64,000 nucleotides of DNA from Candidatus Omnitrophota bacterium (GTDB lineage: Bacteria > Omnitrophota > Gorgyraeia > Zapsychrales > Zapsychraceae), in assembly GCA_015233195.1 (NCBI GenBank), contig JADFYE010000002.1, positions 90,184 through 154,183 on the forward strand. Reading direction: 5' to 3'. A model generated the notes under the pieces. That model did not search any database and was not told the origin of the DNA. It saw only the letters and a program-made list of their open reading frames with translations. Position 1 is the stretch's first letter; every line of letters begins with the position of its first letter. Positions 5,530 through 62,750 of the stretch are shown piece after piece. Both the position numbers and the translations under genes were made by a program.

Positions 5530-5707
5530 TTTTCTCTCCCTTATTAATTGTTAACAACTGGTCTATATAAGGCGGTTTTAAAAAATTATAATAAAAAATA
5601 CCGCATAGTTAAATATAAACACGAAAGTGTTTTTATTATAATATAAGAATTGATTTTGACCAGAAATATTTTAAATCACACCCAGACAAAGATTTACAAA
5701 AACCTCA

Positions 5708-6184
5708 TTAATGCCCCTGACCATGAAGCATTTTTATTGCGTGTTCTAACAGATCAATTATTGAAGATAAAGACTCAACCGCCCCAGCAGGGCTGCCAGG
5801 AAGGTTTATTATAAGAGAAGAACCACGTATTCCGCATATAGAACGAGATAAGTAAGCTCTTTTGGTTTTATCAGCTCCTAAACTGCGCATTGCTTCAGCT
5901 AAACCCGAAACTTCTTTATCAACAACTTCTTTAGTAACCTCAGGCGTAAAATCCCGCGGAGAAAGACCTGTTCCTCCATTGGTCAAGACCACATCACAAG
6001 CCAATTCATCACAAAAATAAATCAAACGATCGCGTATCTGCAAAGGATCATCTGGAATTATTTCGTATGCCTTAACTTGAAAAGGCTGATCTATTAAAAA
6101 TTCTTTAAGTCGTTTCCCTGTAACATCTTCTAAATTCCCCTTGCTTCTCGTATCACTAATCGTAAGAATAGCTATAGAATACAT
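5708..6184 (-). CDS. MogA/MoaB-type molybdenum cofactor biosynthesis protein
   Basis: 158 aa with the MoCF-biosynthesis signature VLTNGGTGLSPRD. It is the last gene of the Moco operon. Confidence 0.85.
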   Translation of the reverse strand: MYSIAILTISDTRSKGNLEDVTGKRLKEFLIDQPFQVKAYEIIPDDPLQIRDRLIYFCDELACDVVLTNGGTGLSPRDFTPEVTKEVVDKEVSGLAEAMRSLGADKTKRAYLSRSICGIRGSSLIINLPGSPAGAVESLSSIIDLLEHAIKMLHGQGH

Positions 6185-6624
6185 ATATTATTCCCTGGTC
6201 TAATAACACCGCCTTTTTCAACAACTGCAAATACCCCATCTGTAGGCATAACGCACATTCCTGCCTGGTCATAAATACGGCATTTATCGTGACATTCTTT
6301 GCCTTTTTGAGTAACTCGTAATATTACTTCCTCCCCCAGCCTTAAACACGTTCCTTCACTTAAACTAATCAAATCAATACCCGACACTGTAATATTTTCA
6401 GCAAAATCGCCTGGATTAACTTTAACCCCTTTTGCAGTAATTTTAGCAATAGAATCCATTGATAACAAACTTACCTGCCGAATTCCAAGACCAGCATGAC
6501 CGTCGCCCTCAACACCCCAATTTTCTTTCAGAAATATTTCCGGATGATTTATTTTCTTTTCACCTTTTTTTACCGAAGTAGAAACAGCCTCAACTTTTCC
6601 GCACATAATTACCGCTTTTCCCAC
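6172..6624 (-). CDS. MOSC-domain protein
   Basis: 150 aa of beta-barrel-like sequence (QVSLLSMDSI..., GDFAENITVSGIDL) lying between moaC and the mog-type gene. This is a typical position for a standalone MOSC protein. The true start may be the internal MCGKV. Confidence 0.65.
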   Translation of the reverse strand: MGKAVIMCGKVEAVSTSVKKGEKKINHPEIFLKENWGVEGDGHAGLGIRQVSLLSMDSIAKITAKGVKVNPGDFAENITVSGIDLISLSEGTCLRLGEEVILRVTQKGKECHDKCRIYDQAGMCVMPTDGVFAVVEKGGVIRPGNNICIL

Positions 6625-20109: not shown

Positions 20110-23100
20110 TTACCAGAATTTATAGAGCAGTTTTCCTGATCCATAAATACCTAAAAACTCATCTTCTATTTCTGTATCTCCAGTAACGACTATGGAAAGA
20201 TCATTTTTAAAATCAAAAGCCAATTGTCCTCCTAAATTATAACTGGTCTTATCTTTATCCGATCCATTAACCACAAATGGTCCGCCGCCGCCAGTATATC
20301 TCGAGGTGATTTTCAAATTATCATTAATAATATCTTTTAACCATGTGCCGTGAAATTCCGGAATAAAATTACCCCAGCTGAGTCCACGCATAGGAAAAGA
20401 GATACTCGCGCCCAAGCCCGACTGCAAATTATCATAATTCTGAGGATCTACCTTTAAATTCAAACCTCCGGCATCAGTCTCAGTATAACCAGCTATCCGG
20501 GTATGACTATACTGAAGTGAAGCTAACGGTGTAAACTCCAAACTACTCATAATATTAAAAGTATAACCAGTCCTTAAAGTACCATCATATTGCTGCCCAT
20601 CATATTGTGCTTTTGCTATCCTGTTTATCCCGCCGATATTAATATCCCGGCGACCATCATACCAGTTCCACGCGAACGCGCCTACACCGTCAATAAAGAA
20701 CGGAACTTCAACATTATGATATCCGGCGTATAAAGAACCTTGCGCGCTTTGAATATCTGTTCTTCCCTCATTAACTTCTGAATTAACTTGACCCATAGCA
20801 TAACCACCACTGCCGCCAAACATTATTGAATCAGTTACCTGCATTTCCTCACCAATAGCCGTGCCACCGTTCCAGGCTTTATACCCATCAATACCATGCA
20901 GCCTTTTTTGATTTAAATAACTGCCATAAGTTTTTCCCCAAGCCCTGCCGGATTTTTCGCAATCACCCGACGATAGCCCGCTATCAATATTTGACTGAAT
21001 TTTATTTAAACTTGCTTCAATTGCGTCAAGCTCTCGATTTATAATGTCTGCAGTACTTAATTTAGCTTTTTTTCTTTCATCATTCAAAGCTAGCTCAACC
21101 CTTTGTATTCTTTCAAAAGAAGTATTTATAAAATTACGAAGCGAAGTGCGGCTGACATTTAAAGCTCCCCCATCTACCGCCGGATAAACCGTATCCAACG
21201 CAGCAGTTACTTGGTCATCACTTAAACCATCAAGGGTAGTCAAAACATTAGCCATATCACTAGTAGGATTTGTAACATTATCTAAAGCAGCACCTGCAGC
21301 TCTAGCATTAGCATTAGACCCTAAACTACCAAATCCGTTTGCCATACGGCTAGCAGTTAAAATCAAATCCCCGCCTGAACTTGAAAGTGAAAATGTAGCT
21401 CTAGAACTATTATATGTAAGTGTCGGAATATTTACCCCTGATCCGCCGTTACCATCTATGATCGTAAACCTAGCATTATTCGGAACATACGCAGCAACAT
21501 TAACATCAACAATACTCGTACCTGAAACAACCGCTGCTGCAACAGACTCAACTTTACCAGAAGTTGAAACGCTATCAATTGTAACTTTGAGTTTTGATCC
21601 AGCAGCCTGAGTATAAACCCCTGCAGCAGTTGTTCCGATCCCTAATGAAAAGGTGTGAGCGCCTACATCCAAAACCGCGGTAGGATCTGCTGCTAGACTC
21701 AAATCTCCGTTAATCGTATGATTGCCGCTGAGCGTAACTGTACTTCCCGCCTTAATATTAGTAACTGAGGCATAAATATCATTATTTAAAGCCGTAGCTC
21801 CGTTAAAATTTACTGCAGCTAATTCTTTAACAGCGTCACCCATATCCCCGCCGGTTGATGTTGCTCCTAAAAACGTCAACGTACCTGTACCATCATTCGC
21901 TGTTGTAACCATGCTATGAATATTATGTCCGCTTGCAATTCTCAGTTCATTATTATCCTCAAACTCAACATTTTGCGCATTAATATCGCCGTCGATTGTA
22001 ACTGTTCCCTGTCCGCAATAAAGCGTGTTGACTGCTGAACCACTTATACCAATATTCCCTGTTGCTGAACCATCCCCGAGAAAAACAACATCTCCGGTAT
22101 TATTTCCAATAATTGTTCCGGTAAAATTTACCTCGTCAGTTAGCTCTAAATTATTTGATAAGTTATCCGATAAATCTACCGTTGTAATGTTTGAATCAAA
22201 GGTCAACCGCGCAACAGACCCGCCAGAGACATTTAAGTTATGAGCATAAACCAATTGTTCGAATTCCGCTGTCGCGCCTCCATTAACATTAATAGTCCCC
22301 ACATAATGGGCAGTATCCGCAACCCCTACATTTCCATCAATAACTGAAGATCCGTTTTGTACTGTTATGTTACCAGTATTGTTTGCAGTTATTCCTCCAG
22401 TCGTCAAATTAGCCCCGTTATCCAAAATCAAAGTACCATTATGACTACCAAAAGCTACATTAGAAATATTAGAACTTTCCTGCAATTTAACAACACCTTC
22501 ACCAGCACCAGATGCACCTGTAAAATTAAGATTCGAAGCATTAACCGCATGCACAAAAGTCGCAGTAGAACCTACACCCACTTGAGCGCTGATTGTTCCA
22601 ATCCTATGACCAGCATTTGCTCCTACAGTCCCATCAATTGTAGAATTACCTAACAGAGTCAAAGTGCCTGTATTAGTAGCTGAAATATTACCTGTCATAT
22701 TCGCGCCATCTGCCAAACGAAACTCACCATTATTAACACCAAAAGCTACATCTCCAGTTAAATTAGCGCCAGTTCCTAAAATAAATTTACCCGCAGCGTT
22801 TAAACTTACATTCGTTGGACTCGCAACACTGCCATTGGTTGCACCTTGCAATTCTACAGACCCAGTGCTGTTAATATTAAGCGCTTTAACAAAAAGATCA
22901 TCTTCAAAAATTACTTCTTTTCCTGCTGCTCCTTGCGCATCCACAGTTGCTAAACGATTTCCATCTGAGCCAACAGTTCCGGAAATAATTGATGACCCTA
23001 ACAACTCTAATGTTCCATGTGTTCCGATATCGTTAGTAGTGGTGATCGCGCCAGTTAAATTCACACCATCTTCAAGCGTTAAAATTCCATCATGTGTTCC

Positions 23101-24129
23101 AAAATCTACTGTTGTGATATCATTTACTCTACCCGCAGCATACTTTAATGTTATTTGCCCATCACCAGTAAAATCAAGATTTGAAGCATATATGTTAACA
23201 TTAAAATTAGAATTTGATCCGTTAGCGCCTGCTTCAATCGTATCCAACCTAGCAGTAGTACCCAAACCAATCGTCCCTGATCTGGCAGTAGTAGCAATCC
23301 CTATCTCACCTATAACATCAGTACTACCTTCCAGTTTCAACGTCCCAACATTATTAGCAGTAATACTTGAAACTTCTAAAGTTGTATCATCACCCATGCT
23401 TAACTTGCCATTATTACTACCAAATGCGACAGTTAAAATATCAGAATCGCCAGTTAATCTTACCTCACCTACATCACTAAAATTAAGGTTATTAGCATAT
23501 ACATTACTATTCAAAGTCGAAGTTGACGTATTTCCTATGCCAACATTAATATTATTAATACGCGTATTACTCGTAGCTTTACTTCCCACCACCCCATTTA
23601 TAGTATTATTTCCATTTAACGTTAAAGTACCCACATGATCTCCATTTACAAAAATTCCAGTTCCAGTACTTCCATCACCAAGCGTCAAATTAGTTGAGTC
23701 AGCCAAAATCAAATTACCGTTATAAGCACCAAAATCTATTTTATCAATATACTCATCGCCTTGAAGTCTTAAGGTGGTTGGCGCCGATGCTGTTATGACC
23801 CCAGAATAATCAAGTAGAGTCAGTCCCTGGGCCGCACTTCCAATATTGCCAATAATTAAAGACCCAGTATTGTTCGCATCTAACTCGGCTATCACTCCTG
23901 GGTTTGCAATATCTATTTCAATAATAGATTTAACCTCATTTGCCCCATTGTCTGTCTGATAAATCCCGGTAGCGTCCGTAGAGAAAATATCCGTATAAGT
24001 TAATCCGAACGTACCTGGATCCGATGCCCAGGTTTTTGTTTCACCAGCATTAATATCAACAGCTCTACTTATAGTTGGAATTAAAAAGATAGAAGATAAG
24101 ATAATAAATAAAGAAAGAAATTTTTTCAT
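20110..24129 (-). CDS. Autotransporter (type Va) with long repetitive passenger domain and C-terminal beta-barrel
   Basis: A signal peptide is followed by ~900 aa of degenerate ~90-100-aa G/N/T-rich repeats (e.g. NLNFTG...VAFGSHNGTLxLxDGANLTG...NNTGTLTLLGNSTIDGTVG). The ~280-aa C-terminal barrel ends in ...GKLLYKFW. Confidence 0.8.
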   Translation of the reverse strand: MKKFLSLFIILSSIFLIPTISRAVDINAGETKTWASDPGTFGLTYTDIFSTDATGIYQTDNGANEVKSIIEIDIANPGVIAELDANNTGSLIIGNIGSAAQGLTLLDYSGVITASAPTTLRLQGDEYIDKIDFGAYNGNLILADSTNLTLGDGSTGTGIFVNGDHVGTLTLNGNNTINGVVGSKATSNTRINNINVGIGNTSTSTLNSNVYANNLNFSDVGEVRLTGDSDILTVAFGSNNGKLSMGDDTTLEVSSITANNVGTLKLEGSTDVIGEIGIATTARSGTIGLGTTARLDTIEAGANGSNSNFNVNIYASNLDFTGDGQITLKYAAGRVNDITTVDFGTHDGILTLEDGVNLTGAITTTNDIGTHGTLELLGSSIISGTVGSDGNRLATVDAQGAAGKEVIFEDDLFVKALNINSTGSVELQGATNGSVASPTNVSLNAAGKFILGTGANLTGDVAFGVNNGEFRLADGANMTGNISATNTGTLTLLGNSTIDGTVGANAGHRIGTISAQVGVGSTATFVHAVNASNLNFTGASGAGEGVVKLQESSNISNVAFGSHNGTLILDNGANLTTGGITANNTGNITVQNGSSVIDGNVGVADTAHYVGTINVNGGATAEFEQLVYAHNLNVSGGSVARLTFDSNITTVDLSDNLSNNLELTDEVNFTGTIIGNNTGDVVFLGDGSATGNIGISGSAVNTLYCGQGTVTIDGDINAQNVEFEDNNELRIASGHNIHSMVTTANDGTGTLTFLGATSTGGDMGDAVKELAAVNFNGATALNNDIYASVTNIKAGSTVTLSGNHTINGDLSLAADPTAVLDVGAHTFSLGIGTTAAGVYTQAAGSKLKVTIDSVSTSGKVESVAAAVVSGTSIVDVNVAAYVPNNARFTIIDGNGGSGVNIPTLTYNSSRATFSLSSSGGDLILTASRMANGFGSLGSNANARAAGAALDNVTNPTSDMANVLTTLDGLSDDQVTAALDTVYPAVDGGALNVSRTSLRNFINTSFERIQRVELALNDERKKAKLSTADIINRELDAIEASLNKIQSNIDSGLSSGDCEKSGRAWGKTYGSYLNQKRLHGIDGYKAWNGGTAIGEEMQVTDSIMFGGSGGYAMGQVNSEVNEGRTDIQSAQGSLYAGYHNVEVPFFIDGVGAFAWNWYDGRRDINIGGINRIAKAQYDGQQYDGTLRTGYTFNIMSSLEFTPLASLQYSHTRIAGYTETDAGGLNLKVDPQNYDNLQSGLGASISFPMRGLSWGNFIPEFHGTWLKDIINDNLKITSRYTGGGGPFVVNGSDKDKTSYNLGGQLAFDFKNDLSIVVTGDTEIEDEFLGIYGSGKLLYKFW

Positions 24130-34788: not shown

Positions 34789-35367
34789 TTATTTGCGTCT
34801 GCGAACTAAAACTAAACCGCTTAACCCGCTGCCCAACAATAACAAAGACATTGGTTCAGGCACCACTGATTGATTGCCCTCTCCGCCAATGATCTCCATC
34901 TCTGATAACCCTGCCCAGTGCGATCCACCAACAACTTCATATTTTGCATACCGCATATCAAGCCCATAGGTTCCAAACGATAATGTTCTGGTCCAATCAA
35001 CTTCATCCACAAATGTTCCGGAAGCGACCAAAGTCCAATCCGTATTATTTGTGCCTGTATAAAAATTATAATCATTCGTATAGCCAGCATACTGACCATC
35101 CGGAGGATACATTGTGGTAAGAACAATTTGATTTACATTGTAAACATTTTGTAAATCCACGGTCACCCAATATGGGTTAGCTTCCGTAGCATGACCATTG
35201 GCCACCCAAGTCGTATAAAGATCACCATCAATTGCATTCGATGCAGGGAAATATTCGCTGTTAGCTGTTGCGATAGCGCCTAAAGCCAAATTCGTAGCGC
35301 ATACCGGCGTAGTCCACAAAAGTGCTACTCCAAACATAAACACTAAACTTAAAATAAAATTCCGCAT
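34789..35367 (-). CDS. PEP-CTERM protein with discoidin (F5/8 type C)-like domain
   Basis: I prefer the start at 35367 (MRNFILSLVFMFGVALLWTTPVCA) because an AAGGAAG RBS precedes it. NLALGAIATANSEYFPASNAIDGDLYTTWVA is typical of discoidin domains. The C-terminus is VVPEPMSLLLLGSGLSGLVLVRRRK. Confidence 0.8.
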   Translation of the reverse strand: MRNFILSLVFMFGVALLWTTPVCATNLALGAIATANSEYFPASNAIDGDLYTTWVANGHATEANPYWVTVDLQNVYNVNQIVLTTMYPPDGQYAGYTNDYNFYTGTNNTDWTLVASGTFVDEVDWTRTLSFGTYGLDMRYAKYEVVGGSHWAGLSEMEIIGGEGNQSVVPEPMSLLLLGSGLSGLVLVRRRK

Positions 35368-35516
35368 AAACTTCCTTTCGCTAAACTTGGTAATTATTCT
35401 TAGTTGATGACAATGCCTTGTCATTAAATTTATAAAAGTGAAGAGAACTATACGATATGATATAGCATATGTCAATAGGACATACCTACCCAGAGTAGGA
35501 CAAGATTAGAATCAGT

Positions 35517-38500
35517 TTACTGTTCAAAAATTTGCAGAAAATTTGTAACTGGCATAATTTGGAGGATTGTAAAAGTAACACCACTCACTTGCGCGGCATC
35601 AATTTCTATTCCATTAAAATTAAATTTAAAATCTTCTCCTCCATTTTTAACCTGCATACTCATCTGCGCAGGGTCTAAGTCAATCCCGCCTGTACTTTGC
35701 TTTTCCTCGTTAAGATACTTTTCGGGTGATTGTAAAATATCGCTTAATTTCTCTATGATTTTCTGTCTTTGACTATCTTTAATAATATTGCGATAAAATA
35801 GGTCATTACGTGAAAGCTCCTCTAATAAAATCCTCAATTCCTGCGGATACGTACGTAAAACATCCATAACCTTTGCCCATATAGCTTGCCTATACTCAGG
35901 AGGAGAAGAAACATTCTTTCCTTCTAAAAAAACAATTGTTTCAAGATTATGTAAAACATAATGTCGTATTTTTTTCTTCATAACCGGCATTTCTTTACCG
36001 CTTAATAAATGGTCCGTATAAACTTCCAGCCGACTAGCCATATTCCAAGGCTGGGCATCATCCATTGCCTTTAGAACACTAGCATTATGCTCATTAAATT
36101 CTACTGGTTTTTCAAAAGCCAATTTATCTTCCCATAAATCCAAACCCATGGCTCTGGTCCTCTGTTCCAACGCTTTGAATGAATCATCTAAGAAACTTAT
36201 TTCTCTCTCAATTAAGAAAGGTTTATGTTGCTTAAATAAAAATGACATCGTCCCGGCTCCTCTGATTTTAGGAGCAAAATCAGAAGATACCAAAAGCTGT
36301 TGAAATAATTCCTGAGGCATATTTTTCCAAAAACTAATAATGATAACTTTTTGATCCTTTTCAATAATCCACGAGTTTTCTCCCAGTACCAGTACGCCGG
36401 GTAACTTATACGGATCAGCCGGGAACCTATTTGAATAACCCCTTTGTCCTGCTCCTAAGTCAAACAGCACTACCGGTCCAGAGACATTAGCATTGATTAA
36501 ATCCTGCACATAATTTTCTAATCCTTTGAGACTATGTAAATACGCAACCGCCCATTTCATGTGTTCAAGACCCTCTCTACGGACACCTAATTTATCCAAC
36601 AACTCTCGTCTCTCCTCTAAAGTGCGTATTGCCTTTACTTGGGCATTTCCATTAACACCAACACCTAATGTCCCTGGCATAAAACCAGTGGCAAAAAAAT
36701 CCTGCTGTAAATCGCCGAATGTCTTTCCAAAATTTAAATTATCAAAATCACTGATATTAATAGTTCTTTCTACAGCGGCTTTGGGTTTCCATAAAGTTGG
36801 CAAATACTTAATTAACACATAATCATTTCTTTGAGCCATACCATCTTCAATAGTAACGAGCTCTTGTGGTTTATTAATGATTGTAGCAGTAAAATTCTCA
36901 TCCTTAACTTTATAAGCCAATATACGAATACCTTGAACCGTCTGAGCTACAAGACTCCCATTAATAGCAGGTTCAATTAACGGCAACCAACGATTTGTGA
37001 TTTTATCCTCTGTAATTAAAAAAATTGGATTAGAAGGATACCTTTCCTTTAACTTTAATAATAATCCCCAAGCAATTACGGTATCCCCACGACCATCCCT
37101 CAGGTAAGGCAGTGAAAAATAAATAGGCATATTCGGATTGCGCACTTGCTCAGATATCTTTTCTTGCCAACCCATTTCCTGTTCCCAAAGGTCTAAAGAT
37201 TCCACCGACCAATCATCACTCACACAGGTCTTCGCAAATGGAACCCAATCCTTTTGAAAATACATAGCCAGCAGATCATAAACTCCGCGCAAATCCCTTA
37301 AATAACATGTAGCCAGAGAATTCTGCACAGAAACAACTATTTGCTGGGCTTCCAAAGACTGCGGTTCCATACCTGCCCATATTTTAAAACTAATCGCCAA
37401 ATGCAAAGCCACCACTTCCATGCGCAAATAGGCATTTATATCTAAAGCCCTAGGTTCAAATAAAGGTAATGCCTGACGCAAAGCTTCTGTATCAACAAGC
37501 CCATCCCTTATCCAACCCATTGCAGCCTGCGCCAGAGCTTTAAACCAGTAACTTTGATAAAACCACCGATCTTGATCTTTTTTCAGAAAATCAAACCGTT
37601 TAGCTAAAATTAAAAATAATTCATTGCGTTTGGAAGGATCCAACTCTTTAAACCATTGCCTAGATGCAACAAACATTTTTTGTTCTTCTCCTGAATTCCC
37701 AAAAAAAGTTGATTGAGTCCATTGCTCCGCAAAATGTTTATAATATTCATCCGGATTATTTAATTGGGCATTGTCTGTCTTTACCGCCCTATATGCTGCC
37801 ATCGCGTCCTCGCCATTGTCAGAATCAAATTTTGACCAAAATTTAAGAACAATTTTTGTTCCTTTTCCTGGAAATGATTCTATATCAAATTGATCTGCTG
37901 TCGCTCTTGCCAATGGTAATCCGACTCCAGTACCGCCAGCCGCAGTTGCCCCTTCCGGCTCTGCTGACAGTCCATGAGGTTCAGATAAATCGCCTCGGAA
38001 TGCCGCCTCAATGTCCTGTATACCTTTGCCATGATCCATGATAAATATTTCTACCCCCATTCGACCAACATCAAAAATGGGGCGGCTTAAAATAACCCCA
38101 TAGTCTGCATAAAAATATGTGTTTAAAATCAATTCAATAATGGCTGATTTAATATTATCTTTCCGGTTGTTAGAGATCAAATGACTTATCGGTCTTAAAA
38201 TACGTGAAGCGACAACAGAAGCTTCAAGTCCACCGACTTCATGCGGCCAATACCCCTTAAATGCAGTTCCTTTGATCAGAGCAACTTGTTCTTCCGAAGG
38301 AGGAGATATCCGTGTATATCGTTTTAATTGTTCCACTAAAGCCAAACTTTTTTCAACATCACCCATTTGAAGATAGGACCATAACTCTTTAATAACGCCA
38401 TCGGAAAACATCGCTCCATCTGCTGACGGATTAGATATACTCCTCATCATATCCATATCACCAACAACCTCTATCAATGGTTTGGATAGTGCAGCCATGT

Positions 38501-39590
38501 CTTTAGGCGCAATCCTCGCTAAATCCAGAAATTCTATTACTGGAGTAATATTTCCAACTACCCCGCCGGAAAAATATTTCCTTGGCAAAAATTGATTTGT
38601 AAGCGGATCTGGTTCTTCTTTTATGTAGTTGTATACGCCTTTTTTAAAAGCTTGGATGTATTGTTGATAAATTTGTTCCGGGTCTCCACTTAAATTTTTT
38701 GTTGATAACAAATTACCGATTTTATTTTGGTTAGAATAAACTTTATTAAAAATACTGTCTTTAATTTTCTTTTTGTACCACGTAGCTAAAATTAATGAAT
38801 AAAATACCTGACGTAATTGCGTAAAATTTTTACCTTCATTAACTTCTTTTTCCAGCGCGGGAATTATGATCTGCTTTAAAATTTCTTGATTGATCCCCTC
38901 ACTTTTTACCTTTAACCTTTCACCTTTTTTCTGTGATGCCGCATAATCTATCTCTGTCATCACCTTCAAATGATTTTCCAATACAAAGGCTGTTCCCCCG
39001 CTTTCATAAACCACCGCCTTCTCGGGAACTATCCAAACTTTATTAAATGTATCTACGGGAATATCTGTCGTTCCATATTTGGCTTGAGCCTGAGCATAAA
39101 CTTTTTGCCAAAATTCTTTGCCTAATTGGCTTTCAGGATAAATTAAACTTGCGGTAATTTGTTTTAACAAATAATCTTGCGCCAATAAATCGCGGCCCAT
39201 TTCAGTTTTACCAAATGCTTGCGGTACAATGCGGTCTTTTTCATAAGGAGAAAGATTGACCCAAAGGTCTTTTTCAGGAATAGTTAAAGAAGCAAGGAAA
39301 TATTTGATCAAACGATTGGCTTCTTGTCTAAATTCTTCTTGTGACATTTCAGCACCGTGATCGCGAAGCGATTTTACGGTGTCACCAGTATCTACAAAAA
39401 AATTAAACTTGAACGGATTTTGCGGGTCTAATTTAATGCCTTTTAGCACTGCAGGATTGAAAGCAGGACTTAGCGATACCATTTGCCCAGGTGCAGGCAG
39501 ACTAACTTCCTGAGCATAAATTGGATTTGACCCCAGAATGCTAGTGCAGACAAAACACAAAAGAATAAATAGAGAAAGTATCTTTTTCAT
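35517..39590 (-). CDS. Large secreted modular protein, paralog B: family N-module, GHKL ATPase-like domain, ~700-aa unknown region and 'GGID' C-terminal tail
   Basis: Signal peptide is MKKILSLFILLCFVCTSILGSNPIYAQ. The N-module is shared with paralogs A and C. The GHKL-type boxes are ELILNTYFYA (N box), MDHGKGI (G1) and GGTGVGLPLA (G2). The C-terminus is GGIDLDPAQMSMQV... Confidence 0.85.
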   Translation of the reverse strand: MKKILSLFILLCFVCTSILGSNPIYAQEVSLPAPGQMVSLSPAFNPAVLKGIKLDPQNPFKFNFFVDTGDTVKSLRDHGAEMSQEEFRQEANRLIKYFLASLTIPEKDLWVNLSPYEKDRIVPQAFGKTEMGRDLLAQDYLLKQITASLIYPESQLGKEFWQKVYAQAQAKYGTTDIPVDTFNKVWIVPEKAVVYESGGTAFVLENHLKVMTEIDYAASQKKGERLKVKSEGINQEILKQIIIPALEKEVNEGKNFTQLRQVFYSLILATWYKKKIKDSIFNKVYSNQNKIGNLLSTKNLSGDPEQIYQQYIQAFKKGVYNYIKEEPDPLTNQFLPRKYFSGGVVGNITPVIEFLDLARIAPKDMAALSKPLIEVVGDMDMMRSISNPSADGAMFSDGVIKELWSYLQMGDVEKSLALVEQLKRYTRISPPSEEQVALIKGTAFKGYWPHEVGGLEASVVASRILRPISHLISNNRKDNIKSAIIELILNTYFYADYGVILSRPIFDVGRMGVEIFIMDHGKGIQDIEAAFRGDLSEPHGLSAEPEGATAAGGTGVGLPLARATADQFDIESFPGKGTKIVLKFWSKFDSDNGEDAMAAYRAVKTDNAQLNNPDEYYKHFAEQWTQSTFFGNSGEEQKMFVASRQWFKELDPSKRNELFLILAKRFDFLKKDQDRWFYQSYWFKALAQAAMGWIRDGLVDTEALRQALPLFEPRALDINAYLRMEVVALHLAISFKIWAGMEPQSLEAQQIVVSVQNSLATCYLRDLRGVYDLLAMYFQKDWVPFAKTCVSDDWSVESLDLWEQEMGWQEKISEQVRNPNMPIYFSLPYLRDGRGDTVIAWGLLLKLKERYPSNPIFLITEDKITNRWLPLIEPAINGSLVAQTVQGIRILAYKVKDENFTATIINKPQELVTIEDGMAQRNDYVLIKYLPTLWKPKAAVERTINISDFDNLNFGKTFGDLQQDFFATGFMPGTLGVGVNGNAQVKAIRTLEERRELLDKLGVRREGLEHMKWAVAYLHSLKGLENYVQDLINANVSGPVVLFDLGAGQRGYSNRFPADPYKLPGVLVLGENSWIIEKDQKVIIISFWKNMPQELFQQLLVSSDFAPKIRGAGTMSFLFKQHKPFLIEREISFLDDSFKALEQRTRAMGLDLWEDKLAFEKPVEFNEHNASVLKAMDDAQPWNMASRLEVYTDHLLSGKEMPVMKKKIRHYVLHNLETIVFLEGKNVSSPPEYRQAIWAKVMDVLRTYPQELRILLEELSRNDLFYRNIIKDSQRQKIIEKLSDILQSPEKYLNEEKQSTGGIDLDPAQMSMQVKNGGEDFKFNFNGIEIDAAQVSGVTFTILQIMPVTNFLQIFEQ

Positions 39591-40395: not shown

Positions 40396-41526
40396 CTATT
40401 TCAATGTATAACTCGTGCTCCGTCCACCTGCGGCGTCTTTTCTGAGAATCCCTTTTTCCATAAGATCAAGAATATCTCTCAACGCCGTGTCTTGGGAGCA
40501 TTTTGTAATCTTTGCCCATTTAGTAGACGTGAGTTTACCCTCAAATCCATCAAACAATTTATTGACCATCATTTTCTGCCGTTCGTTGATCGCCCCGGAT
40601 GAATGCTTTTCCCAAAATTGTGCTTTTTTAAACACACCTGCTAATGTGCTTTCCGTTGATACAAGAGCCCGGTCGAGACAAGTCAAGAACCACTCAAGCC
40701 AAGTCGTAATATCAACGCTGGCACCTTTCTGCGTCTTCTCAAGCACATCATAATAAACACTTCGTTCCTTACGGATCTGGACAGACATGCTGTAAAAACG
40801 TTGCGCACTACCATCGGTCCGCGCCAATTGCATATCCGTGATCGCTCGTGCGATGCGCCCATTCCCATCCTCAAAAGGATGGATTGTTACAAACCATAAA
40901 TGCGCAATCGCCGCCTTTAAAACTGGATCAAAACCCTTCGAATCACTTGTGGTGAGCGAAGTCGAACCATTAAACCATGATAGATAACTCTTCATTTCTT
41001 GATTCAAACGATCTGCGCTAGGAGCTTCAAAATGGACACGTTCCCGCCCAACGGGTCCAGAAACGACTTGCATCGGACCATCTTTATCATCACGCCATAC
41101 ACCAATTTTTATTTTTCGCATTCCACTGCGTCCCCCAGGGAACATCGCGGCATGCCAACCGAATAAGCGGTCTTTTGTGAGTGGTTTTTTAAAATTTTGC
41201 GTAGCGTCAAGCATCATCTCAACCACCCCTTCCACATGACGGTCAGAACCAACAAGTCCAGCAATGTCCATCCCGAGTCTTCGCGCAATAGATGAACGAA
41301 CCTGACCAGGATCAAGCTTCTCACCTTCAATCTCGCTGCTTTTCAACACATCCAACGTAAGCGTCTGCAAGACCGCTTCCATGCGTAATGAAAAGCCTAA
41401 AGATTCCATCCGACCCATGAGTCGCCCTTGACGATTTCGTACTGTTCCAAGCTGCGCCGCGATCTTTTCGTGACTCCATGTAAATTGAGGCCAATTTTTA
41501 AGTTGATATATATATTTCATACTCAT
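40396..41526 (-). CDS. Fic-family protein (AMPylase-type) with N-terminal DUF4172-like region and C-terminal wHTH
   Basis: The canonical Fic motif is HPFEDGNGRIARA. The N-terminal block is LKNWPQFTW.... Confidence 0.9.
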   Translation of the reverse strand: MSMKYIYQLKNWPQFTWSHEKIAAQLGTVRNRQGRLMGRMESLGFSLRMEAVLQTLTLDVLKSSEIEGEKLDPGQVRSSIARRLGMDIAGLVGSDRHVEGVVEMMLDATQNFKKPLTKDRLFGWHAAMFPGGRSGMRKIKIGVWRDDKDGPMQVVSGPVGRERVHFEAPSADRLNQEMKSYLSWFNGSTSLTTSDSKGFDPVLKAAIAHLWFVTIHPFEDGNGRIARAITDMQLARTDGSAQRFYSMSVQIRKERSVYYDVLEKTQKGASVDITTWLEWFLTCLDRALVSTESTLAGVFKKAQFWEKHSSGAINERQKMMVNKLFDGFEGKLTSTKWAKITKCSQDTALRDILDLMEKGILRKDAAGGRSTSYTLK

Positions 41527-42484: not shown

Positions 42485-44956
42485 TTACTGATTAGAGAAA
42501 GATTCTATATATAAAGAAAGCGGCAAAGATTTTAAATATTTTTCGTGTCCAGCGTGTGCCAATAACAAGCGATAAACTGTGCTAGCGCTATGACCTGATG
42601 GAGCAATCTTGGCATTTAGCCTATACTTTTTCTGAATTACTTTAAAAGTCTCTGGGCAAACTTCATTTTTCCTTTTAATAAACTTTTCAATTGATGCACT
42701 CATATTTTTTCTGGCAAAATTCATTTCCTGTATTAAATTATCAATTTGTGATTTATTTGTTGGCGTCTCCTTTTGAACAGTGCACCAAATGTGTTTTAGC
42801 GCAGTCTTAATATGCTGTAACTCTCCTTCTTTTAATGTTAATAAAAGATCCTTCTGATCAGGAAACTCAACAAAATCAATTTCCAAATTCGTCATATATT
42901 TTTCAATAGCTTGCCATTCAGAATGTCCATCTCCATAATAATTATTAACAGATTCACAAATTTCAAACCATCTGTGTTGATGATAAGTTAGTATAAACGA
43001 ACCTGTTGATTGAGCTAAAAACAAACCCAATTCAAGATTGGGACTTAAATGCGCAATGTGCATCTGACAAAATTCTTCATCACTTTCATGAAGCTGTAAT
43101 GAAGCCAACGGATCTTGCTCTCTATTTATCTTAATTTCCACAAGAGTTTTTTCAAGTTGCTCATCGTTGATTTCAGGCATATGATGCTTAATAAATAATC
43201 TTATACGCTCATCAGGCAAATTAAACATACCTCTTATCACGTCTTCCATAGCCAACTTTTTCATTGACAGCATTACCTTCTCATCAATTTTCATTGTTTT
43301 ACACCGGTTTTGTGACGCTTCCATAATTTGTTGTCTTAATTCAAAGTCAAAATTCATTGGATCAGGAATCATATTGACCTTGCCAATTTCTATTAATGGC
43401 ATAAATGAAATAAAAAATAAAATGTTCTTTAATGTTTCTTGTCTAAACGTGGAAGGATTATTTATTGGATTGTATTCTTTAGGAAGAACATTTGCATTAG
43501 CAAACGGATTAATAATTAATATCTCATCTGCATATAAAGAAAATGCCGCAACATCCTTATAAGCAACACGCGGATCCAATAAACCTGAATAAAGCGCACG
43601 TGATATTTTTTTATCTGGCTTTGGCAATAAAGCCATTAAATCTGTTTCAGTTGGCCAAAGACTCGCGAAAACTTTATGAATTTCTATTATTTTATCATCA
43701 CTAAACTCTCGTCGAATTTGTGTCCAATCCTTTTTATCTAACTCAAGAATTTTTGTAAGAATCCGAAAAAACATTAAATTCCGTTCTCGGATACTTAATT
43801 CTGTCCATGACGACCTTTCCTCCATTGTTTTATCATAGCAACATCTCTTATATTTTTTAGCGCTTCCGCAAGGACAAGGGTCATTTACACCGATCTTGCC
43901 TTCTTTAGGTTCTTTTTTAAAAAAATTTGCTTCTGGGTGAGTTCTGCCATACTCATCGCTATAAAAATATGTGCCATCTTTATTTTGGCCATAAACTTCC
44001 CCTCCATAATTATAAAGCTTGTCTTTAGGTGGCAACAACACCTTACCTATCTCCGTCCAAGAGCTTTGAATAAATTTCTCAGGGTAAAGCCATTCTTTAT
44101 TTTCAGCAGCTAAAAATTGTTTTGATCGTAGCTTAATCATAAGATTTATTTTGGCAACTTCGTTGTCTTGTAACTCCCTTTTACAAATTATATTATCCAT
44201 TCTCCCTAAAGTATTTCGGAACGACTTCGCGTTAGCTCTATATATTTTAGGATCAGATAAATCAGGGTTACGGGCATAATCTAAGTTAGTAAGAATCAAA
44301 CAACGGGCACTATCTAGAGGGAAAACTGTTTGGGTTGCTTTCATTTCGATTCGAGGATCGTTAGGATATATACATTCTTCACTATTAGGAGGACAAGCAT
44401 AATTATAAGTTGTAATGGGATGATCAGAAACTATAAATTTTATTTTTGATTTTCTTGCATACACTATCTCTTTAACAGACTCAAACCAAAGTGTGCAATG
44501 CAATTGCCTAATTTTCTGCATTTCAAATAACAACTGATTATGTGTCAAATTTGGATACTTTGACTTCAGCCAAGCAAGCCCTTTCGGAGTACGAATTTTC
44601 TGTATATCAATGTATTCAAAAAACTTCTCAAAATTATTATGTAAATTTTCAAATTCCTGTTCAGCCATTGCACTCACAGCATTAAGACCTACATTATCAA
44701 TTTTCCCAAAAAGATAACGTTCAATGTCATCATTTAAAAATCCGTAATAATGTGTCGTATATAAATCTTTTTGGCAGAAACATTGACTAGGGCTAAAAGG
44801 ATAATTGATTGCTTTATCTTGTTTCTTGTGCCCATTGGGTAATTCTATTAGTTGTGGGCATAGATTTAAGTAATAAAAAGTGCTTTTTGAAGAAGATAAA
44901 AATCTCTTCTGATACCACTTTGGAACATAATGATTTCTACGTGTAATATCAATCAT
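42485..44956 (-). CDS. DUF4238-like N-terminal domain, SEC-C zinc motif and ~440-aa uncharacterised C-terminal region
   Basis: The N-terminus RRNHYVPKWYQKRFL and the block FIVSDHPITTY match my recollection of the DUF4238 signature. The SEC-C motif DPCPCGSAKKYKRCC is encoded at 43835-43885. Confidence 0.7.
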   Translation of the reverse strand: MIDITRRNHYVPKWYQKRFLSSSKSTFYYLNLCPQLIELPNGHKKQDKAINYPFSPSQCFCQKDLYTTHYYGFLNDDIERYLFGKIDNVGLNAVSAMAEQEFENLHNNFEKFFEYIDIQKIRTPKGLAWLKSKYPNLTHNQLLFEMQKIRQLHCTLWFESVKEIVYARKSKIKFIVSDHPITTYNYACPPNSEECIYPNDPRIEMKATQTVFPLDSARCLILTNLDYARNPDLSDPKIYRANAKSFRNTLGRMDNIICKRELQDNEVAKINLMIKLRSKQFLAAENKEWLYPEKFIQSSWTEIGKVLLPPKDKLYNYGGEVYGQNKDGTYFYSDEYGRTHPEANFFKKEPKEGKIGVNDPCPCGSAKKYKRCCYDKTMEERSSWTELSIRERNLMFFRILTKILELDKKDWTQIRREFSDDKIIEIHKVFASLWPTETDLMALLPKPDKKISRALYSGLLDPRVAYKDVAAFSLYADEILIINPFANANVLPKEYNPINNPSTFRQETLKNILFFISFMPLIEIGKVNMIPDPMNFDFELRQQIMEASQNRCKTMKIDEKVMLSMKKLAMEDVIRGMFNLPDERIRLFIKHHMPEINDEQLEKTLVEIKINREQDPLASLQLHESDEEFCQMHIAHLSPNLELGLFLAQSTGSFILTYHQHRWFEICESVNNYYGDGHSEWQAIEKYMTNLEIDFVEFPDQKDLLLTLKEGELQHIKTALKHIWCTVQKETPTNKSQIDNLIQEMNFARKNMSASIEKFIKRKNEVCPETFKVIQKKYRLNAKIAPSGHSASTVYRLLLAHAGHEKYLKSLPLSLYIESFSNQ

Positions 44957-59193: not shown

Positions 59194-62100
59194 TTACTCT
59201 ACCCACTGTGATAAATCTTTAATCGGTGAGATATTTGTGATTACCGGAGCCACTGCTTCCATATTCAGCATTGCAGAATCAATATTTTGTAAATTATAAA
59301 CCGGCATAACAAAACCGCCGCCCTCCTGCGACACCTTCATGCTCAGAGCCGCAGGATTAAAATCAATCCCACCTTTAGTATCCTCGCGCGCTTTTATATG
59401 CAGATACCGCTCCCCATCAAAATTCAATTCGTACTCATCCCTAAAAAGTATTTTTATGCGTGCAACAATGGCTCCTAGCATCTCAGCCGCATCAAATTCC
59501 GATTTATCTTTGTACCGTTCATATATTTCTTTTAAATCATGAGAATTGCGCCCAACAATCCTCACAATATTCTCTACTGAATCCATCAAATCCATATATT
59601 GGGGGAACGTATCAAATTGCTGATACAATAATTTATCCGGATTATCAAATATATTCATTTCTTCATTACCATTTCTAACATAACTTAATTCTATACCAAC
59701 TACATACTCAAAAAATACCATTTTATCCCCGGTTTTTTTAAAAACAAAAAAAGTAGTATTGTGTCCAGCCATAAGAATGCCCCCCTCATTCAACATTGTG
59801 CCCATACGCTGAATAGCGTCAGCCGTTTCTTGAGCCGTATAATAATCATCAAAAACATTCGCAACCCGAATAACATTCACCTTTTGCTTAATACCCGATA
59901 GTCCAAAACCAGATTTTACAAAAGTAAGATTATCGGTTTGTTCTTTCCTTACCGGGTCGAAACTTATATTCCCTTCACTTTCTATCAGATCCTTTTCTTT
60001 AGTAAAATCTTTCTTACTATAGAAGTCTAATCCCAAATGTTTACGCATTAATTTATCGCGTATTGCTATCGCCTTTTCTTTAACCATCTTACTTTCGGTT
60101 TCATCCAAAGTCTTGTGAAGAAAACCTGTGCCGATCTTTTCAACCGCATCAACAAATATTACGCGATGCTCAACCTGTCCGGTTACCTGATTATAATTAA
60201 TTTCAAAAAACACACTATACATATCTGTTTCATTTTTAGAAAAATTAACAACATAATCTGGAATGTTTAAATCAACACCAATAACATTAGCGGTTTTAAC
60301 CACTTTTTTTGCTAATTCAACCGTTGTTATAGGTGGAAATCCTATTCCAAAATCTATAACAGTTGATCTTCCTTCGCTTTTATTATGCTTCAAATAGTCT
60401 GCAATATATTCGTCCATTGACCCATTACGATCACCGGTTATTCCCAATGTAATTTTCCCGTCCAGGTTAGAATGACCATTTAAACGTTCCTCGGTGGTTT
60501 TTATCAATGCCCTTAATCGTATTGTTTCCGGATCACCATTAAATTCTGTATTTAGGACTTCATAATCTGTATTAAAACTTTCGACTTTAACAAAAGTTAG
60601 ACCGGCTGAAAACTCAATACCAATATCCCTCATGCGATCTGTTTTTTCTTGATATGTATCCCCTCCAATATTTTTCCCTTTCAAAAAATTCATGGCTTTT
60701 AAACTTAAAAAATTACGATAGAAATTAAGAGCATAGCGCGGATCGATCCTCGCCATCATTTCATCAAACAAAGGATATTCGATATCCGTAACACCTAAAA
60801 CATCTGAAAGTTTTTTATCTGAAGAAAAATCAGCAGCCCTTAACTTTTGAAAGAACGCAAATGTTTCTAATTTATAAATCTCCCATTTATATTCGCCAGC
60901 CAAATTACGCGTTGCGTCTAAAAATTCACTAAAATTCTCTGTAGTCATATACCAACTAAGTTTATCCGCAAATTCAGAGAAAACCGGAGCTAATTGCAAA
61001 GCAGCCACCTTATATTCAGGCTCTAAGTCTTTCAAAATTAATTTATAGTTATCATATGCTTGACTCCCCTCAATAAAAGGAAACTCACTCCGCTGTATGA
61101 TCGCTTTGATAAATAAAAATTCTTGCGAATTAATTCCAAAAATCTCCTTCAAAAAAGAACCGCTCTCCTTTGCAAAATCAGCGTCAAGAAGAGCCAATGT
61201 TCTTACAACACTTGGTGGAGCCATATGCGGATCATTGTCATGCAATATTCCCGCAATAAAACATAAATTCAGCAAATCCTCGTCTGTTATACCTAAAGCC
61301 TTAGCAAAAACAACTATCTTTTCAGCAGTACGTTTAGAATGTTCCCAAGTATGATACCCTGACTTAGGATACCCCTCCATAAACTCTGAATCATTTTCAA
61401 AATATTCTATAATTTTTTCACGGCTTTTTCTTATCGCAGGTAAATCATCCCTCGCTGACTTAGCTGAAAACATAGCATGATCACGCGTATCGCTGTCCAT
61501 TTGCCAACTCAATAATGCCAAATCATGACCTTTCATTTGCACGCCCGGATTAGTCCCCCTTGCAATCAGTGCATTATCCAAAACCACCCCGCCTGAAAAA
61601 TACTTACGCGGAATAATCTGCTGATTGATAGGATCATATTCTTCCTTAATAAAATCGTATGCACCTTTTTTAAAAGCTGAAACATACTGCTTGTATATTT
61701 TCTGTACTGCCTGACTATCGTCTGATTCAAGCCCTTTAATTTTTTGATTGTTTACATATGATTTTAAAGGATTACTTATTGCAGCTTTTAATTTCTTTTT
61801 ATACCAAGTAGCCAAAAGCATAGCTTGATAAATTTGACGCAGCTTGGCAAAAGTCTTACCTTCATTAACTTCTTTCTCAACTGCAGGTAAAATAACTTTT
61901 CGGAAAACTTCAGTTGATATGCCGGATATTTGTTTTAGATCTTCAGCTTTAACATGACCCAATCCGTGCCGATCGCTATTTTTATTCATATCGAGTGCTA
62001 GATAATCTTCGTCGAGCATGACCTTTAATTTAGCTTCAGTAATGAACGCGCCTTTTTTATGTTCATAGATCTTTACCGTACCCGGGACAATCCAAACCTT

Positions 62101-62649
62101 ATTAAAAGTTTCCACCGCAAGATCCAAAGAAGACCCTTGCTGTTTACCATTCTTATAAAGTTTGCCATATATCTCATCCCAAAATTTTTGACCAAATTCT
62201 CCATCAGGATACATCAAAGACGAGACTAATTGTTTAAGCATATAATCTTGTGCCAAAAGATCACGACCCATTTCAGTCTGTCCAAAAACTTGCGGTATAA
62301 TCCGGTTTTTTTCATACGGAGAAAGGTTAACCCACATCTGGTCTTCAGGAACAGATAAAGAGGCAAGAAAATATTTAATAAGCTGATTAGCTTCTTGTTC
62401 GAACTCGTTAACCCCGTGATCGTGCAGCGATTTTACGGGACCTTTATCAACAATAAACTCAAACTTAAAAGGATCCTGCGGATCAATGTTCAAGCCCTGT
62501 ACTTGCACCGGCTGATACGCTGCGGTTAATCCAATCAACTGCAAAGCAGGCGCTGATGAAATATTTTGCGCTAACACAGACGACGGCGCCAACATATTTG
62601 TACAAAAACAAATACTAACAATAAACGCGCATATTTTTCTCATATTCAT
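59194..62649 (-). CDS. Large secreted modular protein, paralog C: family N-module, HD-domain, Rossmann methyltransferase-like region and 'GGID' C-terminal tail
   Basis: The likely start is 62649 or 62643 (MNMRKICAFIVSICFCTNMLAPSSVLAQ, a signal peptide). The N-module is shared with paralogs A and B. The HD pattern is HTWEHSKRTAEK...IAGILHDNDPH. The motif-I-like block is VIDFGIGFPPITT. The C-terminus is GGIDFNPAALSMKV.... Confidence 0.85.
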   Translation of the reverse strand: MNMRKICAFIVSICFCTNMLAPSSVLAQNISSAPALQLIGLTAAYQPVQVQGLNIDPQDPFKFEFIVDKGPVKSLHDHGVNEFEQEANQLIKYFLASLSVPEDQMWVNLSPYEKNRIIPQVFGQTEMGRDLLAQDYMLKQLVSSLMYPDGEFGQKFWDEIYGKLYKNGKQQGSSLDLAVETFNKVWIVPGTVKIYEHKKGAFITEAKLKVMLDEDYLALDMNKNSDRHGLGHVKAEDLKQISGISTEVFRKVILPAVEKEVNEGKTFAKLRQIYQAMLLATWYKKKLKAAISNPLKSYVNNQKIKGLESDDSQAVQKIYKQYVSAFKKGAYDFIKEEYDPINQQIIPRKYFSGGVVLDNALIARGTNPGVQMKGHDLALLSWQMDSDTRDHAMFSAKSARDDLPAIRKSREKIIEYFENDSEFMEGYPKSGYHTWEHSKRTAEKIVVFAKALGITDEDLLNLCFIAGILHDNDPHMAPPSVVRTLALLDADFAKESGSFLKEIFGINSQEFLFIKAIIQRSEFPFIEGSQAYDNYKLILKDLEPEYKVAALQLAPVFSEFADKLSWYMTTENFSEFLDATRNLAGEYKWEIYKLETFAFFQKLRAADFSSDKKLSDVLGVTDIEYPLFDEMMARIDPRYALNFYRNFLSLKAMNFLKGKNIGGDTYQEKTDRMRDIGIEFSAGLTFVKVESFNTDYEVLNTEFNGDPETIRLRALIKTTEERLNGHSNLDGKITLGITGDRNGSMDEYIADYLKHNKSEGRSTVIDFGIGFPPITTVELAKKVVKTANVIGVDLNIPDYVVNFSKNETDMYSVFFEINYNQVTGQVEHRVIFVDAVEKIGTGFLHKTLDETESKMVKEKAIAIRDKLMRKHLGLDFYSKKDFTKEKDLIESEGNISFDPVRKEQTDNLTFVKSGFGLSGIKQKVNVIRVANVFDDYYTAQETADAIQRMGTMLNEGGILMAGHNTTFFVFKKTGDKMVFFEYVVGIELSYVRNGNEEMNIFDNPDKLLYQQFDTFPQYMDLMDSVENIVRIVGRNSHDLKEIYERYKDKSEFDAAEMLGAIVARIKILFRDEYELNFDGERYLHIKAREDTKGGIDFNPAALSMKVSQEGGGFVMPVYNLQNIDSAMLNMEAVAPVITNISPIKDLSQWVE

Positions 62650-62750
62650 AATAAAGTCCGGGTAAAGATACACCCGCCCCCTTAATACAATATAAGTATA
62701 AGACATATTAGGTAAGAAAAACGTCAAATTGGGATGAGATAAGAAAACGT

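Follow-up and report, generated by a model that had tools for sequence, protein, structure and literature searches.

Paralogs A, B and C in the Omnitrophota window

The window analyzed here, a whole stretch of 64,000 nucleotides (64 kb) from contig JADFYE010000002.1 of the Candidatus Omnitrophota bacterium assembly GCA_015233195.1, encodes three long paralogous proteins, A, B and C. The element under study is the C-terminal segment of about 57 residues, here called the GGID tail, in which B and C end. The layout common to A, B and C starts with a Sec-type signal peptide, followed by a conserved N-terminal module of about 310 residues (the N-module) that ends in a near-invariant YFSGG. The N-modules of the paralogs are 41-52% identical to one another (46-52% for B versus A and C), and the middle regions that follow them are unrelated.

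Paralog B is encoded on the minus strand at 35517..39590 by an open reading frame (ORF) of 1357 residues plus stop, and in a full-length search it was 100% identical to HQL25_01500, a 'hypothetical protein' from a metagenome-assembled genome (MAG) of Candidatus Omnitrophica. Its predicted Sec signal peptide (MKKILSLFILLCFVCTSILGSNPIYA/QE; 39513..39590, minus strand) has an n-region, an h-region and an AxA-like site that were read from the sequence, the assignment having been made by eye and from conservation across the family alignment. The N-module of B (residues 27-343; 38562..39512, minus strand) ends in YFSGG and matches the N-module hidden Markov model (HMM) at E=7e-195. Paralog C, also encoded on the minus strand, runs from a probable ATG (MNMRK...) over 59194..62649, its ORF reaching further upstream to a TTG at 62727; the N-module of C, down to YFSGG, lies at 61588..62568 (minus strand; HMM E=7e-157). 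Paralog A is partial (1..1719, minus strand): it starts at about 1719 and leaves the window at the left end, with its C-terminus outside view, and the part that can be read comprises a signal peptide, an N-module (HMM E=1.6e-144), YFSGG, the tetrapeptides DSAM and DNAM, and the beginning of a variable middle region.

The GGID tails of B and C are homologous

The sequence-only reading of this stretch had held that B and C end in related peptides, and the likeness is real, as judged both from pairwise identity and from a profile made without either protein. The peptides had been placed correctly, at 35520..35699 in B and at 59197..59376 in C, but the coding strand is the minus strand, and both reverse ORFs terminate exactly in them; a plus-strand reading of the two intervals was rejected as stop-ridden or meaningless, with no ORF. 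In B the tail comprises residues 1298-1357, with GGID at residues 1301-1304, and its assignment draws on the translation, the tail HMM and the tail alignment; in C it spans 60 residues. The two tails share 32% identity over 59 residues (pairwise blastp, E=2e-8). Because a tail profile lacking B and C matches both of them (B residues 1299-1354, E=3.9e-27; C residues 1117-1175, E=3.4e-14), their likeness reflects homology, not chance, and B and C are the sole matches to this profile among the 530 ORFs of at least 40 residues in the window.

Two main tail subtypes were recognized among the best matches of the full-length search with B, type 1 (GGIDLNPAQMSMQVKKEGQDFKFDFNGTEIDAAQVTGATFTIRTMTPVTNLPQILGL) and type 2 (GGIDLTPANMNLQTQNAGEEIKFHLDPAMLQQLQNAPGFVPVIINIQPMTDLRQFLGL). 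The tail of B is type 1-like, and that of C is a divergent outlier. B terminates in ...IMPVTNFLQIFEQ and C in ...ISPIKDLSQWVE, and tails of the wider family finish in ...NLPxxLGL plus polar extensions. Inspection of the sequences revealed neither a hydrophobic or transmembrane helix nor a basic cluster in the tails of B, C or the family. In library searches, 56 isolated tails had no match to a sorting-domain model of Pfam or NCBIfam at E<=1; Por_Secre_tail and TIGR04183 were matched neither by B or C at E<=0.1 nor by the 56 tails at E<=1, and the Pfam model Dockerin_1 was matched by none of B, C and the 56 tails. Across whole proteins and the 56 tails, N-module and tail fall into no Pfam-A or NCBIfam family, with scattered chance matches only, and a comparison of the N-module with PDB sequences found nothing (best E=0.088, to VPS35). 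In some long members, internal partial matches occur besides the terminal tail (residues 618-636 of homolog P0121, residues 19-30 of homolog P0123 and residues 351-373 of an ORF in locus L046); these reach no further than the tail's initial 12-20 residues (GGIDLxP...).

Tail-bearing proteins form a large family

That the tail might be confined to B and C, as the sequence-only reading had considered, does not hold: thousands of tail-bearing proteins were found. The full-length search with B returned at least 4,785 significant relatives, 758-2348 residues long, with N-modules that are 46-71% identical and middle domains that differ widely; a GGI(D/N) motif lies 57-102 residues from the C-terminus in about 110 of the 120 best matches of this search. 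An exhaustive HMMER search of 1.84 billion cluster representatives with a profile of 56 tails of mixed subtypes matched 5,380 of them at E<=1e-3, and 1,945 of these matches reach E<=1e-10. Among the best 150 of these tail matches, the match ends at most about 32 residues, and mostly at most 15 residues, from the C-terminus.

A scan of the GTDB species-representative genomes, which used an alignment of type-2 tails and is hence biased to subtype 2, yielded 77 loci, almost all of them in Omnitrophota MAGs. With this single narrow pattern, several genomes each gave six or seven loci, and tandem clusters were present, some 12-kb loci holding three family ORFs. The few labels outside the phylum (several 'uncultured Planctomycetales', one 'Alphaproteobacteria' and one 'bacterium') probably reflect labeling or binning issues. 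As judged from these searches, the family appears to be a very large, highly expanded and Omnitrophota-restricted group of signal-peptide proteins. Full-text literature searches gave no account of the family or of the motifs GGIDL, YFSGG and WVNLSPYE, nor of a frame composed of N-module and tail. The family defined by N-module and tail is real and widespread, and it is undescribed in the libraries and literature searched.

The tail is coupled to the N-module

Among the tail ORFs contained entirely within a genome locus, the majority begin with a signal-peptide-type N-terminus and a complete N-module, and most of the others are truncated at the 6-kb flank of the locus. For most of the exceptions, an N-module ORF is present just upstream, in another frame or past one in-frame stop (loci L015, L026, L030, L046 and L051), and these split pairs of N-module and tail ORFs would be pseudogenes or assembly errors. 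The idea that a tail without an N-module is common was rejected: short metagenome hits of this kind look like contig-end fragments, and those in the genome loci mostly follow an N-module ORF that is frameshifted or interrupted.

Several family genes of MAGs, in the same five loci (compare also L028 and L055), are broken between N-module and middle region by a frameshift or a single in-frame stop. Locus L028 further contains a 148-residue, tail-only ORF directly after a full family member. The split genes, the three-ORF loci and the tail-only ORF suggest rapid turnover, pseudogenization or assembly errors. In L040, a 532-residue ORF (nucleotides 4609..6204) has a type-2 GGID tail, no N-module and a pilin-like hydrophobic segment, AFTIIELVIVISVLA, near its N-terminus; it may be a remnant, or its N-terminus may be an uncommon alternative one.

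Variable cargo is flanked by a short linear motif

The domain types of the middle region, referred to as cargo, were collected from precomputed Pfam annotation of the relatives and from a Pfam scan of B and C. They include S-adenosylmethionine (SAM) methyltransferases, HATPase_c, GT2 and GT1 glycosyltransferases, receiver domains, HAD and histidine phosphatases, guanylate kinase, a MutS-like ATPase and TPR, and most middles are without any Pfam match. In B, a weak histidine-kinase-like ATPase domain covers residues 470-584 (37839..38183, minus strand; Pfam HATPase_c, E=1.2e-4, under the curated cutoff), and the cargo region also matches the NCBIfam model spIIAB-like at 2e-5; the cargo of C shows weak Pfam matches to HD and to a CheR-like methyltransferase. 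Members of the family are currently annotated as 'hypothetical' or are misnamed by their cargo ('sensor histidine kinase', 'glycosyl hydrolase').

A tetrapeptide, [DN]xA[MQ], is concentrated on both sides of the cargo. In the 60 residues past YFSGG it occurs at 0.13-0.42 per 10 residues, often in two to four copies (range 1-4), and in the 20 residues ahead of GGID at 0.29-0.37 per 10 residues, the value expected from shuffled sequences being 0.006. The enrichment amounts to about 20-70-fold at both sites, with values near background elsewhere, and about 60% of the members examined carry the motif ahead of the tail, often 3-20 residues upstream. Since both flanks are enriched, the cargo is delimited on each side by one short linear motif, which may serve in processing, in recognition or as a structural strand. 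Past their N-modules, the proteins of the window carry DSAM and DNAM (A), DGAM (B, residues 391-394; 38409..38420, minus strand) and DNAL, DLAL and DHAM (C).

Loops near residues ~70 and ~215 in the N-module (B numbering) and after QVK in the tail hold recurrent insertions in homologs, among them P0005, P0008, P0011, P0022, P0072, P0099 and P0113. The inserted peptides (for example VIPAKAGIQ, SPSRLPS..LNVKAPQG, LSSPNALIGDP, RHPERSEGSQ, SRLRGNDN and FGDDNGG) look like the translation of a small repeated DNA element, in frame and tolerated.

N-terminal hairpin and tail

The sequence-only reading had also proposed that the tail of B echoes the N-terminal motif of the same protein, as homologous strand segments at both ends might do. 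This motif (GIKLDPQNPFKFNFFVD, residues 51-67; 39390..39440, minus strand), a predicted beta-hairpin in the model of a homolog, has a counterpart inside the N-module of C (GLNIDPQDPFKFEFIVD; 62446..62496, minus strand). The resemblance was recovered in one comparison and missed in another. An hhalign alignment of the tail with the whole N-module did not pick the N-terminal motif, and its best match, near YFSGG, was insignificant (P=0.058, probability 0.9%). Alignment of the tail with the isolated motif reproduced the claimed correspondence, GI(D/K)LxP and F(K/R)FxF separated by a 10-residue gap, over 14 columns (P=0.01, probability 4%), with a score of 15.2 versus 9.5±1.8 for column-shuffled controls and none of 80 shuffles reaching 15.2. 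As evidence of homology, this echo at the profile level appears marginal.

The two ends of the proteins are also correlated. In 158 non-redundant proteins, the central residue X of the N-terminal F(K/R)F-X-F was paired with residue Y of the tail sequence (F/I)(K/R)F-Y-(F/L): X is D or E and Y is H, K or R in 75 proteins, X is H and Y is D, E or N in 34, H-H pairs are absent, D-D pairs number two, and B itself has N-N. The pairs of N-module and tail positions with the highest mutual information after average product correction involve the hairpin residues 54, 55, 57, 63, 65 and 66 of B and, elsewhere in the N-module, residues spaced i/i+2/i+4 along strand two of the long hairpin next to it and positions 236/237; the tail positions involved are i/i+2 sites in GxTFTI and DFKF. 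Six of the eight columns that best predict the tail subtype, out of 309 N-module columns, sit in the N-terminal hairpin. The correlation between hairpin and tail resembles an interface but is suggestive only. Strand complementation is not proven, yet it is the direction to which the covariation, in an equally suggestive way, would point.

AlphaFold2 was run on the full-length homolog P0023 (758 residues) with a 47-row alignment, and the model has a mean predicted local distance difference test (pLDDT) score of 56.6, with values of 55-87 in the N-module and below 50 in the tail. The N-terminal motif forms a beta-hairpin in this model, with strands at residues 30-36 and 44-49, and a Foldseek search of the model against the PDB returned no match at E<=0.001. 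Modeled alone, with a mixed tail alignment, the 60-residue tail had a mean pLDDT of 59 and essentially no secondary structure; the low confidence is compatible with a tail that folds on a partner and also with the shallowness of the alignment.

Genomic neighborhood and cell envelope

The sequence-only reading had suggested looking for a membrane machine that co-occurs with tail-bearing proteins, and this proposal found no backing, as no sortase-like, secretin or type IX secretion system (T9SS) gene lies consistently nearby in the window or in the 77 loci. Genes for PorK/L/M/N/Sov/PorU are absent from the window, and when every ORF of the 77 loci that lies outside the family was clustered, no conserved partner gene emerged, no gene family being present in more than eight loci. 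The neighbors of B and C in the window are housekeeping or unrelated genes, encoding a pseudouridine synthase, a Fic/DUF4172 protein, a PurN-like formyltransferase, a major facilitator superfamily transporter, enolase, an FtsH-like AAA protease, proteins of molybdenum cofactor biosynthesis, glycosyltransferases, an amino-acid permease, an autotransporter and an outer-membrane protein.

Directly downstream of B lies the gene for a 228-residue F5/8 type C (discoidin) protein with a C-terminal PEP-CTERM motif (34789..35475, minus strand; E=5e-4, narrowly missing the curated cutoff), so that exosortase-type sorting is probably in use in this genome as well. The autotransporter (20110..24129, minus strand; 1339 residues) has a signal peptide, a long Gly/Thr/Asn-rich repetitive passenger and a C-terminal autotransporter beta-domain (Pfam E=6e-50). 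The envelope is accordingly diderm, with a type V secretion system, and the window neighbors together point to a diderm organism with Sec, the type V system and, from the protein at 34789..35475, an exosortase-type system. A DUF4172+Fic protein is encoded two genes upstream of B (40396..41526, minus strand), and further upstream lies the gene for an 823-residue protein with a SEC-C-like metal-binding motif, CPCGSAKKYKRCC (42485..44956, minus strand).

A proposed bipartite frame for exchangeable cargo

The reading that we tentatively favor, with confidence somewhat short of even, is that N-module and GGID tail, the latter as the C-terminal half, make up a bipartite frame for the export, delivery or assembly of exchangeable cargo. 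The architecture would be that of a signal peptide, the ~310-residue N-module with its YFSGG, a linker with one to four [DN]xA[MQ] motifs, the exchangeable cargo, often a further [DN]xA[MQ], and the ~57-residue tail. The tail would not act by itself: as a strand-rich segment, it would find its pairing partner in the N-terminal hairpin region, either of its own N-module or of the N-module of another copy, and N-module and tail together would be the constant part recognized for export, delivery or assembly. The [DN]xA[MQ] motifs would mark the cargo boundaries, possibly as processing sites, and the family would supply exchangeable effectors, perhaps acting in another cell. Exchangeable effectors seem the most plausible product, because the cargo consists of intracellular-type enzymes dependent on ATP or SAM despite the signal peptide. 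An effector role also fits the Omnitrophota, which have been described as ultra-small, with host-dependent or predatory lifestyles (PMC10066038; bioRxiv 10.1101/2023.11.21.568195).

Several observations weigh against such a frame. A few tail ORFs have no detectable N-module (in L040, 532 residues; in L028, 148 residues; and in L070 and L076), and the tail is not confidently docked on the N-module in the AlphaFold2 model of P0023. The covariation is dominated by the split into two subfamilies and may record one or a few ancient events instead of an interface. Cleavage at [DN]xA[MQ] is putative, and B and C have no copy of the motif ahead of the tail. The signal-peptide-like N-termini are the sole indication of export, and no secretion machine is linked to the family in the window or in the 77 loci.

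In a bolder form, which we regard as possible but doubtful, the proteins would constitute a phylum-specific modular delivery system. N-module and tail would clasp each other about any of hundreds of different enzyme cargos, within one protein (in cis) or head-to-tail between proteins (in trans), with [DN]xA[MQ] as release points, and the whole would be an effector arsenal, a Sec-dependent counterpart of effector display in the style of the T9SS or of the multifunctional-autoprocessing repeats-in-toxin (MARTX) toxins.

An autonomous C-terminal sorting or secretion signal, with the tail alone recognized, and perhaps removed, by an envelope machine and the N-module an unrelated domain, is an unlikely alternative to the bipartite frame. 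The tail is indeed conserved, sits at the C-terminus and is confined to signal-peptide proteins of a single phylum, and the [DN]xA[MQ] that often stands 3-20 residues ahead of it resembles a processing site. A locus resembling type II secretion systems and type IV pili is moreover reported to be conserved across Omnitrophota, with giant proteins adjoining it (bioRxiv 10.1101/2023.11.21.568195). True sorting tags, however, decorate unrelated proteins, whereas intact ORFs almost never have this tail without the N-module. The tail has neither a transmembrane helix nor a basic end, the 56 tails matched no sorting model, no neighbor gene is conserved, and the tail subtype tracks the N-terminal hairpin. 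The sequence-only reading, which had likened the tail to PEP-CTERM, LPXTG and T9SS signals, was therefore partly right: right in spirit, in that the tail is a dedicated and widespread C-terminal element on signal-peptide proteins, but the tag is not autonomous, being nearly always coupled to one ~310-residue N-module, and it has neither the helix and basic cluster, nor a model match, nor a machine consistently near.

Quite unlikely, in our estimate, is that N-terminal motif and tail are homologous beta-strand units that arose by internal duplication and complement each other in trans, building chains or a matrix in a cohesin-dockerin-like manner. The hhalign alignment of the isolated motif, the complementary H/D pattern, the lack of docking in cis in the AlphaFold2 model and the many copies per genome would all agree with such units. 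The alignment, however, has 14 columns only and contains a 10-residue gap, the whole N-module finds its best and insignificant match elsewhere, and the covariation is confounded by clade structure.

That the proteins are not secreted at all, being held by an uncleaved membrane anchor or kept in the periplasm, with the tail an oligomerization or regulatory element of membrane-associated signaling and metabolic proteins, is very unlikely. In its favor, the cargo domains, receiver domains and enzymes that use ATP or SAM, are of kinds typical of the cell interior, and a 2026 preprint reports similar enzyme modules on enzyme-rich, membrane-associated long proteins of Omnitrophota (10.64898/2026.06.07.730766), but the N-termini resemble classical cleavable Sec signals (positive n-region, h-region, A-x-A/AQA and a conserved mature start, (D/E)FxLPAPG), and an N-in topology puts everything beyond the helix outside the cytoplasm, with no further transmembrane segment following.

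Comparison with known systems

For the bipartite frame, the closest functional analogy is offered by MARTX toxins, in which constant ends likewise surround a mosaic cargo with motifs at its boundaries. In MARTX toxins, conserved N- and C-terminal regions bracket exchangeable effector domains, with short processing sites at the domain boundaries; long glycine-rich repeat arms, export by a type I secretion system without a Sec signal, and release by an internal cysteine protease domain complete the system. Glycine-rich arms, type I-type export and a cysteine protease domain are not present in the family described here, as judged from Pfam and NCBIfam. Dockerins are C-terminal modules of about 60-70 residues on cellulosomal enzymes that dock onto a partner domain and are built from duplicated, calcium-binding, EF-hand-like helices. 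The GGID tail is similarly a short C-terminal module common to many putatively secreted enzymes, but it has no Dockerin Pfam match, and the N-module, its putative partner, belongs to the same polypeptide.

PEP-CTERM signals for exosortases, LPXTG signals for sortases and GlyGly-CTERM signals for rhombosortases consist of a motif, a transmembrane helix and a basic cluster. Like these signals, the tail places a brief signature motif close to the C-terminal end of exported proteins; unlike them, it is without a hydrophobic helix or a basic end and is twice as long, and intact ORFs that carry it nearly always share one N-module instead of being unrelated proteins. The T9SS C-terminal domain is an autonomous immunoglobulin-like beta-sandwich of about 70-100 residues on otherwise unrelated proteins (PMC11285876). 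Like this domain (Por_Secre_tail, in Bacteroidota), the GGID tail is a conserved C-terminal element of Sec-signal proteins with diverse domains, phylum-restricted and present in many copies per genome. In contrast to it, the tail, at about 57 residues, is too short for the seven strands of such a sandwich, is not predicted to fold alone, has no model match and is almost always paired with one N-module. Membership of the family in T9SS cargo, MARTX toxins or dockerin-bearing enzymes, its nearest functional analogs, is excluded or unsupported.

Implications for Omnitrophota

Conserved termini around polymorphic secreted cargo are a known theme; what is new is this particular family, defined by an N-module and a GGID tail. 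Models of the N-module and the tail would fill a gap in Pfam and NCBIfam, and the family offers further handles in the boundary motif [DN]xA[MQ] and in the predicted contact patch between hairpin and tail strand, besides the two profile models themselves. Omnitrophota are uncultivated, ultra-small and thought to be host-dependent or predatory, and the family may bear on how they act on their hosts. Because it has thousands of members, many copies per genome, a signal peptide, constant ends and an exchangeable enzymatic middle, it makes a concrete candidate for the repertoire of effectors or surface-displayed proteins of these bacteria.

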